Assembly (NCBI RefSeq): GCF_053078305.1
Contig: NZ_CP166879.1
Direction: 5' to 3' (one strand)
Length of the DNA stretch: 64,000 nt
In this document: piece after piece, positions 21,001 to 27,000 of the stretch
Layout of the letters: every line of letters begins with the position of its first letter
Position numbering within the stretch: the stretch's first letter is position 1
Position numbers: made by a program

Positions 21001-24000
21001 ACAGGCAGGGAAAACATCCGGTACAACACCTTCGTCCCTTCCGGGGTATCCTGCAGGCGGATGCGTTCAGCGGTTACGATCGGCTGTTCAGTGCAGAACG
21101 TGAAGGTGGTGCACTGACAGAAGTTGCGTGCTGGGCCCATGCCCGGCGAAAAATCCACGATGTATACATCAGCAGCAAAAGTGCGACGGCAGAAGAAGCC
21201 CTGAAGCGAATCAGTGAACTGTACGCCATCGAGGATGAAATACGGGGATTACCGGAGTCAGAGCGTCTTGCCGTCAGGCAGCAGCGAAGCAAAGTGTTAC
21301 TGACGTCACTGCATGAATGGATGGTGGAGAAGAATGGTACGCTGTCGAAAAAATCCAGACTGGGCGAAGCGTTCAGCTATGTACTGAATCAGTGGGATGC
21401 CCTCTGTTATTACAGTGATGACGGTCTGGCGGAGGCGGATAATAATGCTGCGGAAAGAGCGCTTCGTGCAGTCTGTCTCGGAAAGAAAAACTTTATGTTC
21501 TTTGGCAGCGATCACGGCGGCGAGCGTGGAGCACTGTTGTACGGGCTGATCGGCACCTGCCGTCTGAACGGTATCGATCCGGAAGCGTATCTGCGCCATA
21601 TCCTGAGCGTACTGCCAGAATGGCCTTCCAACCGAGTTGATGAACTCCTGCCATGGAACGTAGTACTCACCAATAAATAAGCGTCAATACGGTGCTCCGT
21701 TGACGCTTACCGTGATTGTATCTCCTTATTTAATATTATCAGGAGTTAAATTAATATGAAAAATAATGACAGGAAATATATCAGTCTTTTATCCCTGATT
21801 CCTTTGCTGATTGCCGGAGCTCCTGCGTTTGCGCAGAGTGACGGGTCCGTGGCGTATCCTGAAGGAAATGGTGCTGCAGCATCGGTATCGGGCAATTTTG
21901 CAACTGCGCTGGGGGCAGAAGCCCGGGCCACTGAAATTAATGCAACCGCGGTTGGTGCTCATGCGAATGCATCCGGACGTAGCGCCACTGCTGTTGGTTC
22001 TGGAACGCACGCCTGGTCAGATCAGTCCACATCACTGGGAACCGCGGCATACGTTGGCGACAAAGCCGGAAACGGTATGGCTCTCGGCAGCTGGTCGTCG
22101 TCAGATGCAACTGGTGCGGTGGCGGTGGGAACTGCGGCAAAGGCCGCGCATCAGAACTCAGTGGCACTGGGACAGTTTTCCGGTACAACCCGTGAAAATG
22201 AAGTCTACATCGGATATGACTCAGGTGTCACAAACCCGGCCAGTCCGCGTGTACCGGATAAAACCCGGGTTCTCGGTGGTGTCAGTGATGGTACACGGGA
22301 TACGGATGCAGCCACTGTCGGGCAACTGAACCGGAAGGCGGATGAGGTGTACAGTGACGTCAGTGGACGGATTGCAGCGGAAGCACTTAAGGCGCGTGAC
22401 CATACCGATACGGTTGCTGCAGAGAACAGGGAGAATATTATCCGGAACACGGTGGCCATAAACCGTAACACCAGGGGGCTGCTTTCCCAGAGAGACGTGC
22501 TGGAGACGCATGAAGAGCGCCTGAACAGCCAGCAACAGCAGATAAATACCGGAAGTACCGTTGCTGTGGACAGTCATGGTTATGTGACGCGCGGTGAGGG
22601 AACCGGTGAACGAATTACTGTACAGGAAGGGCTGGTACGTACACAGGAAATGGCCACAGAAAACCGTGCTGCGGTAAGCCGTAACCGTCAGGTGGGTGAA
22701 CGCAACAGTCGCGCCATTGCTTCTCAGGCACGTACCCTGCAGGCGCATGAGCGTCGTATGAACAGTCAGCAGCGTCAGATTAATGAGAATCATGAGGAAA
22801 TGAAGCGGGCAGCAGCCCAGTCAGCAGCGCTGGCCGGTCTTTTCCAGCCATACAGTGTGGGTAAATTTAACGCCACAGCGGCAGTGGGCGGGTACAGTGA
22901 CAAGCAGGCTGTTGCGGTGGGCATGGGATATCGCTTTAACGAACAGGCTGCGGCAAAGGCAGGTACTGCGTTCAGTGACGGTGATGTTTCCTGGAATGTG
23001 GGTGTCAACTGGGAGTTCTGAACCCGGGTCTGAGTCACCGGGGCGGGCAGCGTTCTGTATGCGGTCATGATTCGCTGCCTGCTTTTCTCCCCGGTGGCAT
23101 GACTGACGGTTCCGGGGTATTCCTGAGGAGCTGAGAGGGAGAGTGTATATGCTGAACTATCGCATAAGTTCAGTGCAGGTATTTACTGTAAACGGTCGGG
23201 CTGACAGGGTGCAGGTTCGTCTGGAATGCGACGATGCAGCTGTTTTTGAATGTTGTCTTCTTGCTGAAGGAGAAGGGGAACTGAAAGAGCTGAGTCTGTC
23301 AGAGCTGGAAGAGCGGGCACTGATGTATGCGGCAGACAGTTTCCGTTATGAATGATGAGTCAGTTATACCGGTAATGGTGAACGGAGCCGGTATCCGGGA
23401 GATAAGGGTCTGAGAGTATGCAGATTATTATTATGACCCGTGACAGATATCTGGAATATGGCCTGATGCGTATGCTGAACGGATACAGGCTCACGACAGG
23501 CCGTGAACTGTTTGATGCCGGAAAGCGCCGTCTGCCACTTCCCGAAGACAGTTATGTGATTCTCTGTGACCGTAATCTGGAAAGGCTTACATACTGTATG
23601 TTCTGTGGGCGTCGTTTTCTTGTCATTCCTGTTTCCTCTGTGAGATGCCTGACAGATATCAGGCAGGCCATCCGTCGTGGTGCGTGGTTGTTCGGACATA
23701 CGGCAAGACCACTGACCCGTACCGAGATGGTGGTGGTCTTCGGGGTTATTTTCCATGAGTACGGCTGTACCTTTCTGGCAGACCAGCTGGGGATAAGCAT
23801 GAAGACGGTATGTGCGCATCTTTACAATGCGATGGAGAAAAATGGTCTGCGAGGTGTCAGTGTTAAATATCTCTGCAGCACCGCAGACCGGTAAAAAGCC
23901 GGTCTGATGAAGGCTGTTGCGACGGGAATTTCTGTGCATGCTGTGTCACGGGCATCCCGGTGCTCCGGATAATTAATGTTATGTGGTCAGGCGTGATAAA

Positions 24001-27000
24001 TTTCATGTGGAACGGGTATGCGTTTTATTTGTGATAACAGTTATTTTCTGGAGGGAGTGAAGGAGTATATTAATCCCGGTAAATTCATTATCAGCGGCAT
24101 GCAGACAGATAATGTGGTGATAATATCTTCTTCCCGGATATCTGAAATTGTCGGCTTTCTGTATAAGAATAATATAAGTGATACGAACACCCTTTATTTT
24201 TCTTCTCCGGAAGCGCTCCGTTTTCTCTGGGGAGTGGTTGACAGTCCGGTTTATGATATCAGACATCTTACTGAGCGATGTTCAGTAAACGATATCAGTC
24301 ATCTGTACCGCGCATTCATGTCGGTGGAGAAGCTGACCCTGTCAGGCCGGCAGGTAAATGTACTGATGATGCTGCTTTATGGCAGTAACGGAACAGAGGG
24401 GGCACGATATCTTGGCATGTCAGAGAAAACATTCTCCACTCATAAGCAGAATCTGATAAAGAGGTTACGGGTACATAATGAAGTTGAGTTGTTGTACAAG
24501 GGGATGCTTCTGGTCAGAAAAGGGAGGTTGTGAAGCAGGACAGCTTATTTCCGGTAATGTTAAACGCAGCCTCTGATTCGTTAATTTCATAATCATAAGG
24601 AGTTTTTATGCGTCTGTTGATTGCTTTTCTTCTTCCCTGGCTGACTTTTTTCACCATTGGCCGGCCTCTGACGGGGATTTTTTGTCTGGTGTTACAGATA
24701 ACGCTGCTGGGCTGGATACCGGCAACAATATGGGCTGTGTATGCGCTTTCGCAGTATAAGACGGAACAGAAAATCCGCGAAGCCACGGGGAAATGATGAC
24801 TGCAGAAGAGTTGGTTGTCATACCGGTGTATATGATGCGGGATAAAGGCCCGGAGATTCCTGGAAATAAAATGTTCCGGGGAATATAAAACAGGGAAAAA
24901 CCGGATGTGATGGACGCTTCTGGCGAGGCGGTTTCATGAATTGTCCGTAATCAGGATATGTTGCCCGGTTACGCCGCGAATCTTGTGGCAGCAGTGGTTA
25001 TTATTATCGGGGGTATCGCTGCACGGATGATTTCTGGTGTGCTGAATAATCTGATGCTGGGCAGGAATATTGATGCCACAGTGGCGCTGTTCCTTTCCGC
25101 GCTGATACGTCATGCCATTATAGCCTTTACGCTGATTGCTGCCCTGGGACGTGTGGGGGTTCAGACAGCTTCCGTAATTGCAGTCCTGGGGGCTGCAGGT
25201 CTTGCTGTTGGACTTGCCCTGCAGGGGTCATTGTCAAACCTTGCAGCTGGTATTCTTCTCGTGATGTTCCGTCCTTTCAGGGCTGGTGAATATGCTGACC
25301 TGGGTGGTGTTGCCGGGACTGTGCAGAATGTACATATATTCTCAACCACGATGCGTACACTGGATGGTAAAATTGTTGTCATTCCGAACGGGAAGATTAT
25401 TGCCGGAGAGATTGTTAATTTCTCCAGGGAGCCTGAACGACGAAATGAGTTTATCATCAGTGTTTCATATGATGCAGATATTGACTGTGTGAAACAAGTC
25501 CTGACAGATATTGTGATGTCAGAAGAGAGGGTTCTGAAGAACAGGGAAATCACTGTTCGCCTGAATGAGCCTGGGGAGTCATCCATGAATTTTGTAGTAC
25601 GGGTATGGAGCAGGCGTGATGACCTTCAGTCTGTATACTGGGATGTACTGGAGAGAATTAAGCGGGAGTTTGATTCAGAAGGGATAAGTTTTCCATATCC
25701 ACAAATGGATATCCATCTTGTTCGCTCCGGGAAGCAGGCAGAGTCGGTAACCCATAACAGTCGCTCAGTCAGTTCCAGACAGTAAAATGAAAAGCGCATT
25801 TTATTTGTGAAAGATGAACAGCCTGAATCTGTCAGGCTGTTTTCATTGTGTTTTTATGGTCATTTTTGGTATATGTACTGTATATAATGTCATCTGTACA
25901 AGGATATAAAATGCCAAAGAAAATAATGACAGGGATTGATGTTTTTGACGCTGCCATGGAGCGTATTGAATGGGTGTTTGATACGTTTTCATCAGTTTGT
26001 CTTTCTTTTTCCGGCGGAAAAGACTCCACTGTCCTGTTTCACCTGATGGCGAATATTGCCCGCCGAAAAAAACGCCGTTTTTCTGTACTGTTTGTTGACT
26101 GGGAGGCTCAGTATCAGTGTACCATTGAGCATGTCACCAGGTTGAGGGAAATGTACGATGATATCACAGATACTTTTTTCTGGGTGGCGCTGCCTCTGAC
26201 GACCGTTAATGGAGTGTCTCAGGTACAGCCTGAGTGGGTATGTTGGGAGGACGGGGCTGAATGGGTTCGCCAGCCACCAGAAGATGCCATAACCAGAGCG
26301 TCTTTTTTTCCTTTTTATCAGAATGCGATGACATTTGAAGAGTTTATTCCGGCATTTAATCATTGGTTTGCCCGGGAAAAAGGGATGGTTGCTGCGATTC
26401 TTACTGGTGTTCGCGCTGATGAGTCACTGAATCGTTTTATGGGACTGGTATCCGGACGTAAGCTCCGTTATGCGGAGGATAAACCCTGGACCACGGCATC
26501 GGCTGAGGGATTTTACTACACCATGTATCCTTTGTACGACTGGAAAACAAGAGATGTATGGATTTACCATGCGAGAACACGTGCTGCCTATAACTCTCTT
26601 TATGACCTGATGTACAGGGCTGGAGTTCCTCTTCGCAATATGCGGGTGTGTGAGCCTTTTGGACCGGAGCAACGTAAGGGGTTGTGGCTTTATCATGTAC
26701 TGGAGCCGGATACATGGGGCAGAATGTGTGCTCGCGTATCAGGTGCTGTAGGGGGAGCGCTCTATGCAAATGAAAGTGGTGCTTATTTTGCTTTGAGGAA
26801 ACAGATAACAAAACCAGTTCACCATACATGGCAGAGTTATGCAATGTTTCTGCTGGAGTCAATGCCTGAGAAAACGGCGGAGCATTACAAGAATAAGATT
26901 GCTGTTTATCTTCGGTGGTGGCAGTCTCATGGATGGCCGGATGGCATCCCTGATGAGCAGGATAATGACCAGGGATGTAAAGATATTCCCTCCTGGCGTC

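Follow-up and report, generated by a model that had tools for sequence, protein, structure and literature searches.

Motility repressors encoded in adhesin operons, such as PapX of Escherichia coli and MrpJ of Proteus, couple adherence to reduced motility, and several regulators of the RcsB type, or partners of RcsB, repress flhDC. The tos locus of E. coli CFT073 ends in two regulatory genes, tosE and tosF (c0364 and c0365, the last genes of tosRCBDAEF). TosEF was reported to suppress motility (PMC5956150), and it stands among the regulators of fliC listed in PMC10392849; it is one of several switches between adhering and swimming in pathogenic E. coli. Here, a region of 64,000 nt from NZ_CP166879.1 (the window, whose positions serve as coordinates throughout) was analyzed, in which a preliminary description had noted two short LuxR-family helix-turn-helix (HTH) proteins and a small open reading frame (ORF). 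All three ORFs were found there, intact and on the plus strand: the small ORF at 23149-23355, a TosE-like regulator that also resembles ORF-156 of the Eib prophages at 23418-23894 (E-like; 158 amino acids (aa), with a truncated receiver-like domain and a GerE-type HTH), and a TosF-like regulator at 24018-24533 (F-like; 171 aa, with a canonical GerE/LuxR C-terminal HTH). The F-like gene follows the TosE-type gene on one strand after a spacer of 123 nt, and this order is shared with CFT073 and plasmid NZ_CP010184.1. The module was present in 408 of 5426 complete E. coli genomes, which marks it as a conserved feature and not as ORFs that arose by chance; public genomes already carry annotations of it, though no name.

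The CFT073 tos locus was used as the reference, and the proteins were compared by BLASTP. The E-like protein showed 37% identity to TosE over 154 of 158 aa (E 2e-40), and the F-like protein showed 42% identity to TosF over its full length of 171 aa (E 2e-43). Both alignments took in the N-terminal domains, beyond the HTH. When the pairs were crossed (E against F), only about 20-40 HTH residues were shared; the E-like protein aligned with TosF over 22 aa of the HTH (E 0.003), and the two window proteins resembled each other in the HTH at most. The proposed resemblance to tosE/tosF thus proved to be true full-length homology in the same order, and not a similarity limited to the generic HTH. Judged by these alignments, the two proteins are a true but very divergent TosE/TosF-type pair. 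TosE and TosF were also considered as mutual paralogues, and this was rejected, as a profile-profile comparison aligned the HTH only, with a probability of 48%.

The explanation that we favor, at somewhat better than even chances, is that the pair represents a third, deeply divergent TosE/TosF lineage within a recurring block that runs from a trimeric autotransporter adhesin (TAA) gene, TAA2, to a Pmp3 gene, and that this block lies behind a tos operon without tosR or an adjacent tosEF. The tos-type type I secretion system (T1SS) operon was located at 6976-16832 on the plus strand by identity to the CFT073 Tos proteins and by NCBIfam T1SS matches. Full-length alignments to the CFT073 orthologues were obtained for all four of its plus-strand genes, namely the TolC-like gene (TosC, 6976-8244, 91% identical), the ATP-binding cassette gene (TosB, 8249-10396, 95%), the membrane fusion protein gene (TosD, 10441-11703, 98%) and the repeats-in-toxin (RTX)/immunoglobulin-repeat adhesin gene (TosA, 11988-16832, 1614 aa, 72%), and the T1SS is, on this comparison, a genuine tos orthologue. 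TosR, of the PapB family, found no match anywhere in the window by tblastn. The gap of about 6.5 kb between adhesin and regulators, filled by a TAA gene, an IS66 element and a second TAA gene, had been described correctly, with the tosA-like gene ending at 16832 and the regulators starting 6.3-6.6 kb further on. The E-like gene, which starts 6.6 kb downstream, is therefore not in the TosE-type position directly after tosA inside the operon.

Such a gap could mean that the pair is the operon's own tosEF, once placed directly after tosA, split off by later TAA and IS66 insertions and still serving tos, a history that we consider quite unlikely. E/F-type pairs were found only in tos-type loci or in copies of the window block, and in a neighbor-joining tree the E-like protein grouped with TosE and an RTX-linked homologue, while the prophage ORF-156 proteins formed another group; both observations agree with such a history. 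So does the rapid divergence of tos regulators. A third type of TosE/TosF was found on the IncF plasmid NZ_CP010184.1, in a complete tosR-CBD-A-E-F locus whose TosC, TosB and TosD were 96-99% and TosA 94% identical to those of CFT073, as against 62% for TosE, 59% for TosF and 70% for TosR. The window F-like protein showed 39% identity to the plasmid TosF. The regulators at both ends of the tos locus thus appear to be hypervariable, or exchanged as cassettes, and the window pair would be a third TosEF lineage. Since tos regulators vary so widely, the identities of 37-42% represent the far end of a general trend and are no proof of foreign origin; their reading as such a proof was softened, because TosE and TosF of an intact plasmid tos operon are themselves only 62% and 59% identical to those of CFT073.

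The distribution of the block speaks against a displaced tosEF. The recurring unit consists of TAA2, the small ORF, the E-like gene and the F-like gene, plus the Pmp3 gene where the 3' side is kept. It was found behind tos in several E. coli strains that produce Shiga toxin (STEC), including IBS28, STEC2018-553 and JNEC-KY202, and without tos at two kinds of sites. JNEC-KY202 has two copies, one linked to tos and one next to the kps capsule cluster, the latter with the 3' end of the TAA gene in front of it. In UTI89 and most of the approximately 370 genomes with a partial copy, the block lies directly after a four-gene chaperone-usher fimbrial operon, adjacent to pap. The UTI89 homology starts at 21738, 18 bp before the TAA2 start codon, and stops at codon 8 of the F-like gene; this copy has an intact small ORF and an intact E-like gene, together with a TAA pseudogene that carries a frameshift and an F-like gene that breaks off after eight codons. 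These genes move together as one unit. One or more TAA genes separate tosA from the pair in every window-type locus examined (both TAA genes in IBS28, one in STEC2018-553 and JNEC-KY202), a hairpin and the extra ORF intervene between the TAA gene and the pair, and nucleotide homology between the window and CFT073 ends 47 bp past the tosA stop codon.

The earlier proposal that the regulatory module had been uncoupled by insertions therefore stands in part. The IS66 element is a recent insertion, as it is flanked by an 8-bp target duplication and is absent from IBS28, relative to which it is the only extra element in the window; to that extent a displaced tosEF is also supported. The remainder of the proposal was not supported, because the run from the TAA gene through the small ORF and the regulators to the Pmp3 gene is found repeatedly as one block, whether tos is present or not, the CFT073 homology stops so soon after tosA, and the pair is 37-42% identical to its CFT073 counterparts, compared with 91-98% for TosC, TosB and TosD. 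The synteny comparison with tos loci showed that the TosE/TosF-type order is kept, and it did not support a simple recent displacement. A link of the pair to TAA genes fits better than displacement from tosA, because TosE-family genes follow TAA genes in the Eib prophages and at other loci. The present linkage of the pair is to the TAA gene, not to tosA.

Further differences were observed among the STEC copies. IBS28 carries its own ISEc20 between the second TAA gene and the small ORF. Strains of the STEC2018-553 type lack about 70 bp of the E-F spacer (16460-16465 in STEC2018-553 versus window 23895-23967), and their F-like gene is annotated with an extended N-terminus (178 aa). In the STEC2018-553 sequence, the subAB subtilase cytotoxin genes (1225-2707) lie directly upstream of the tos-type T1SS, an arrangement that applies to some STEC. 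An "OEP locus" carrying subAB2-2 was described by Funk et al. 2013, and from the position of subAB directly upstream of the tos-type T1SS it follows that this "OEP locus" is a tos homologue. The Cla and Yal adhesins were newly named in STEC that have no enterocyte effacement locus (LEE-negative STEC; bioRxiv 10.64898/2025.12.25.695649). Near-identical copies of the block were found in the JNEC-KY strains of that study, and TAA1 and TAA2 of the window may correspond to Cla or Yal.

Word-indexed homologue searches gave close E. coli relatives only, and more distant members emerged from an exhaustive search with a profile of the E-like family. Among 1.84 billion representative proteins this profile returned 51 matches, with about five full-length clusters, and the members with a visible source came from E. 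coli and its phages. In three clusters the gene comes directly after one for a YadA-anchor protein that shares 50-78% identity with TAA2 at its C-terminus; one of the three closes the tail module of a lambdoid prophage. In one cluster the gene follows an RTX gene fragment. Altogether, TosE-family genes were located after YadA-anchor genes at five loci, and after RTX genes in CFT073, in IncF plasmids and at one further locus. The E-like protein also matched PHROG 6585 (E 9.5e-44, residues 1-153) and 173 entries in annotated phage records, including ORF-156A, C, D and E; in four ECOR-9 Eib prophages (AF151091, AF151674-AF151676), orf-156 follows each eib gene. The E-like gene thus belongs to a tiny family that is usually located just 3' of a surface-adhesin gene, either TAA or RTX. 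No TosF-like genes were found in phages.

Two particular settings of this family were noted. In Logan ERR434798 (2-8453), a TAA anchor and a TosE-like gene (43% identical) lie upstream of a tos T1SS with 94-98% identity to the one in the window; TAA/TosE-like cassettes and tos operons therefore co-locate repeatedly. In Stx-converting phages, namely the Stx1a phage LC744182 (4001-4477) and the Stx2a phages related to and including VT2-Sakai, a TosE-family gene follows lom and a tail-fibre gene and precedes a gene for an nleG effector; a TAA is absent. In the VT2-Sakai type, the TosE-family match is split in two pieces and may be a pseudogene.

The domain structure of the two regulators was then considered. 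The F-like protein matched the Pfam GerE/LuxR HTH with 39.7 bits (cut-off 23.5), and the E-like protein scored 21.8 bits with Pfam GerE, below that cut-off and over the HTH core only. The E-like family profile matched GerE in the PDB (1fse, E 4e-8) over residues 97-153, which span the whole four-helix domain, and it also matched the HTH domains of EvgA, RcsB and VraR. An AlphaFold model of the E-like protein, with a predicted local distance difference test (pLDDT) score of 89.5, comprised a beta-alpha domain with four strands in about 90 residues and, after it, the four HTH helices at 101-152. Its best Foldseek matches were full-length EvgA and RcsB (the top matches, probability 0.97), VpsT and DesR, with probabilities up to 0.99 and weak E-values. 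A complete five-stranded receiver was not seen in this model, and Pfam Response_reg gave no match: beta5-alpha5 and the Lys are missing, T-R-D replaces the acidic pair after beta1, and only Asp51 after beta3 is conserved. Phosphorylation-dependent control is unlikely, because the acidic pair, the fifth strand and the Lys are missing from the receiver-like part. The pair also differs from quorum-sensing LuxR proteins, as Autoind_bind gave no match and the N-terminal parts are only about 95-105 aa long.

By analogy, the pair most likely consists of receiver-defective NarL/FixJ-type regulators that link adhesin expression to motility repression. The two proteins would bind DNA independently of phosphorylation, as CFT073 TosEF would, possibly as a heterodimer or together with RcsB in the manner of RcsA, BglJ or MatA. 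The expected output would be lower flagellar expression, and perhaps tuning of adhesin genes, while the adhesin locus is active. The regulators would probably be expressed either from transcripts that read through a weak hairpin 3' of TAA2 or from separate promoters.

The surroundings of the pair were also annotated. TAA1 (17228-18970, +) encodes a 580-aa TAA with Pfam YadA_stalk and YadA_anchor domains, and it shares 95% identity with the syntenic IBS28 gene. Upstream of tosC (in window 5000-7000), a 192-aa N-terminal TAA fragment (5342-5920) was 95% identical to the N-terminus of TAA1. The IS66-family element follows at 19178-21710 (+; Pfam DDE_Tnp_IS66, E 3e-95; transposase at 20067-21680), and its target duplication, CGTGATTG, lies at 19170-19177 and 21711-21718. 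The right-hand copy reaches to a point 38 bp upstream of the start codon of TAA2, and the empty site is seen in IBS28. The element probably separates TAA2 and the downstream regulators from their native upstream promoter region. TAA2 (21756-23021, +) encodes a 421-aa Eib-like TAA with Pfam YadA head, stalk and anchor domains, which was 48% identical to EibE in an alignment of 423 aa and 64% identical to the C-terminus of EibA, and which matched PHROG 10464 and PHROG 9547. A long hairpin lies 3' of TAA2 at 23034-23098 (+), with a terminator-like stem (GGCAGCG ... CGCTGCC) followed by TGCTTTTCT. The RNA fold of 23022-23148 gave -56.4 kcal/mol (z -2.2), and a terminator-like match was found within the hairpin at 23061-23078. 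The core of this hairpin is weaker than the terminators of the Eib loci, which occupy the same position between the adhesin gene and the regulator gene (TAA or eib, and orf-156). An Rfam search of 22800-24900 gave no match to an RNA element at E values up to 1. In a sigma-70 promoter scan no plus-strand site was found between TAA2 and the regulators, a result that was counted neither for nor against promoters of their own.

The tight and recurrent linkage to TAA 3' ends would also suit a pair of local activators or repressors of the Eib-like TAA gene or genes, with motility not the main target, and Eib expression is strongly regulated by growth conditions (PMC4352079). We regard such a role as somewhat unlikely. 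No binding sites are evident, the regulators lie downstream of the adhesin gene and often behind a terminator, and motility is the sole phenotype reported for the TosE family (PMC5956150). The island also contains other candidates, namely two sets of IbrA-like genes (PAPS_reduct and DUF3440) and IbrB/ParB-like genes, at 989-2837 and at 25848-27131 and 29289-29918 (-); a frameshift divides the first IbrA-like gene into two parts (989-1417 and 1414-2214). IbrAB reportedly activates eib genes, and if this holds the Ibr-like genes may be the actual TAA regulators of the island, which counts against this role for the pair.

The small ORF encodes 68 aa from the ATG at 23149, the start chosen in RefSeq annotations of identical copies, or 70 aa from a GTG at 23143. 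The Shine-Dalgarno-like site that had been reported directly upstream of a 70-aa ORF is present: GGAG at 23138-23141, inside the purine-rich run GAGGGAGAG (23134-23142), ends 7 nt ahead of the ATG. The protein is acidic (isoelectric point 4.4) and gave no match in Pfam, NCBIfam or PHROG; 14 homologues were detectable, with identities of 81% or more, and every one came from E. coli. Six synonymous and six non-synonymous changes separate the window allele from that of UTI89. The ratio of non-synonymous to synonymous substitution rates (dN/dS) is 0.30 in frame, compared with 2.9 and 0.9 in the other two frames, and length variants differ by in-frame Gly-Glu units. The small ORF is missing in CFT073, in the tos locus of the plasmid and in the Eib prophages, which have only about 90-120 nt between adhesin and regulator. 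An origin from the TosA C-terminus, an RTX fragment, the TAAs, ORF-60A or Pmp3 was rejected, as no protein or DNA similarity was found. The small ORF is thus probably a genuine gene, confined to the window-type lineage, and it is probably translated; one guess is that its product is a partner or antagonist of the regulators. One variant ends in ...AADIIIMT, joining its C-terminal region to the start of the E-like protein (MQIIIMT), which suggests either a deletion fusing the small ORF and the E-like gene or a truncated contig.

A direct repeat of 21 nt was also detected. Copy 1, CCGGTAATGGTGAACGGAGCC, lies in front of the E-like gene at 23369-23389 (+), and copy 2, with 18 of 21 bases identical, lies at 24551-24571 (+), past the stop codon of the F-like gene and ahead of the Pmp3 start codon. 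The repeat brackets the E-like/F-like pair exactly, with a chance expectation of none, and both copies are conserved in other full modules. The flanks align further, in the order stop codon, repeat, Shine-Dalgarno sequence and ATG. The repeat may be a shared operator, or else the scar of an event by which the pair came to lie between the small ORF and Pmp3. The Pmp3 gene (24608-24796, +; Pfam Pmp3, E 6e-9) encodes a small membrane protein of the YqaE/Pmp3 family, forms the 3' member of the block, and follows the F-like gene at four loci, namely the two JNEC-KY202 copies, STEC2018-553 and IBS28.

Given the many partial copies, the module could be an evolutionary remnant without a current role, a decaying passenger of a mobile adhesin cassette; we consider this very unlikely. 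In about 370 of the 408 genomes nothing but the small ORF and the E-like gene is left next to a TAA pseudogene, the block has been hit repeatedly by insertion sequences (ISEc20, which separates TAA2 from the small ORF in IBS28 and others, and IS66 in the window), and the E-like HTH scores under the Pfam threshold. In the window, however, all three ORFs are intact, and the E-like model is confident and well folded. The E-like gene (dN/dS 0.45) is constrained, as is the small ORF, whose ratio falls below 1 in the correct frame only and whose indels are in frame, and the F-like cluster holds 881 member sequences at 99% identity.

Several points weigh against a third TosEF lineage in a TAA-linked block that couples adherence to motility. 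As to origin, two tos operons that are both intact already show differences of about 40% in TosE and in TosF, so that an old in-situ origin behind tosA is possible, and the origin of the pair is ambiguous: it may have arisen behind tosA, with the TAA gene added later, or have arrived with the TAA cassette. The restriction of F-type partners to tos-type loci and block copies, and the tree in which the E-like protein stands apart from ORF-156, point in the same direction, and the remnant block of the roughly 370 genomes lacks the F-like gene altogether. As to expression, coupling to adhesin transcription is not assured, because a strong terminator precedes orf-156 in the Eib prophages, and IS66, 38 bp upstream of TAA2, may have severed the TAA2 promoter. 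As to function, TosEF is described from overexpression only, and its mechanism is given as unknown (PMC5956150); at 37-42% identity, the targets of the window pair may differ. The F-like model was poor (pLDDT 54.5, the alignment being too shallow) and was set aside.

On a broader and more tentative view, which we consider doubtful, TosE, ORF-156 and the window E-like protein would form one small family of receiver-defective LuxR-type regulators in E. coli phages and islands, 3' trailers of surface-adhesin genes (for TAAs of the Eib/Cla type and for RTX adhesins) that reprogram host motility and surface genes upon each acquisition of such a cassette. In the window, a TosF-type partner and the 68-aa acidic protein, a possible modulator, would have been added, and the 21-nt repeats would be operators or an assembly scar. 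The TosE family now reaches ORF-156, which trails every eib adhesin gene in prophages, and a divergent E/F pair is found behind Eib-like TAA genes in LEE-negative STEC islands (the "OEP locus", with subAB2-2 in some strains). This suggests that TAA-mediated adherence in STEC may be wired to motility. The variation of the regulators, set against near-invariant secretion genes, also provides natural variants for mapping specificity.

Compared with CFT073 TosE and TosF, the window pair is similar in size (158 and 171 aa, against 160 and 169 aa) and identical in order, and it lies in the same kind of island with orthologous tosCBDA upstream. It differs in the E-F spacer (21 nt in CFT073, 123 nt in the window), in its distance of 6.6 kb from tosA, with TAA genes, IS66, the hairpin and the 68-aa ORF in between, and in the absence of tosR from the window; its regulators also diverge far more than the secretion genes. 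ORF-156 of the Eib prophages is likewise located just 3' of an Eib-type TAA gene, after a hairpin, and the window E-like protein is 44-46% identical to it over the full length (ORF-156A and ORF-156E). The prophage loci differ in having neither a TosF-like partner nor the small ORF, in the strong terminator between eib and orf-156, and in forming a separate neighbor-joining clade.

With RcsA, BglJ, MatA/EcpR, RcsB and EvgA, the pair shares the domain logic of a receiver-like fold and a GerE HTH, and weak NCBIfam matches to BglJ, RcsA, FimZ and CsgD were obtained. Sequence similarity to these regulators is limited to the HTH (EcpR, E 0.008 or worse), and the receiver-like domain of the window E-like protein, with its four strands, is shorter. 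HyxA and HyxR (AutA and AutR) are tandem LuxR-type regulators as well, adjoining the autotransporter gene upaB/hyxB, in a system in which an adhesin, capsule and acid resistance are co-regulated (PMC4844996). They are larger (253 and 264 aa), with a best E value of 0.19 to the window proteins. Kinship with AutA/AutR (HyxA/HyxR) or EcpR/MatA was ruled out, as only a few HTH residues are alike. PapX and MrpJ belong to unrelated protein families, to which no homology was found, whereas the position is the same: the adhesin locus carries a regulator gene on its 3' side, as with papX at the end of pap in UTI89. The general picture is thus unchanged, and the window locus is an ordinary extension of the known theme of adhesin-linked regulators.

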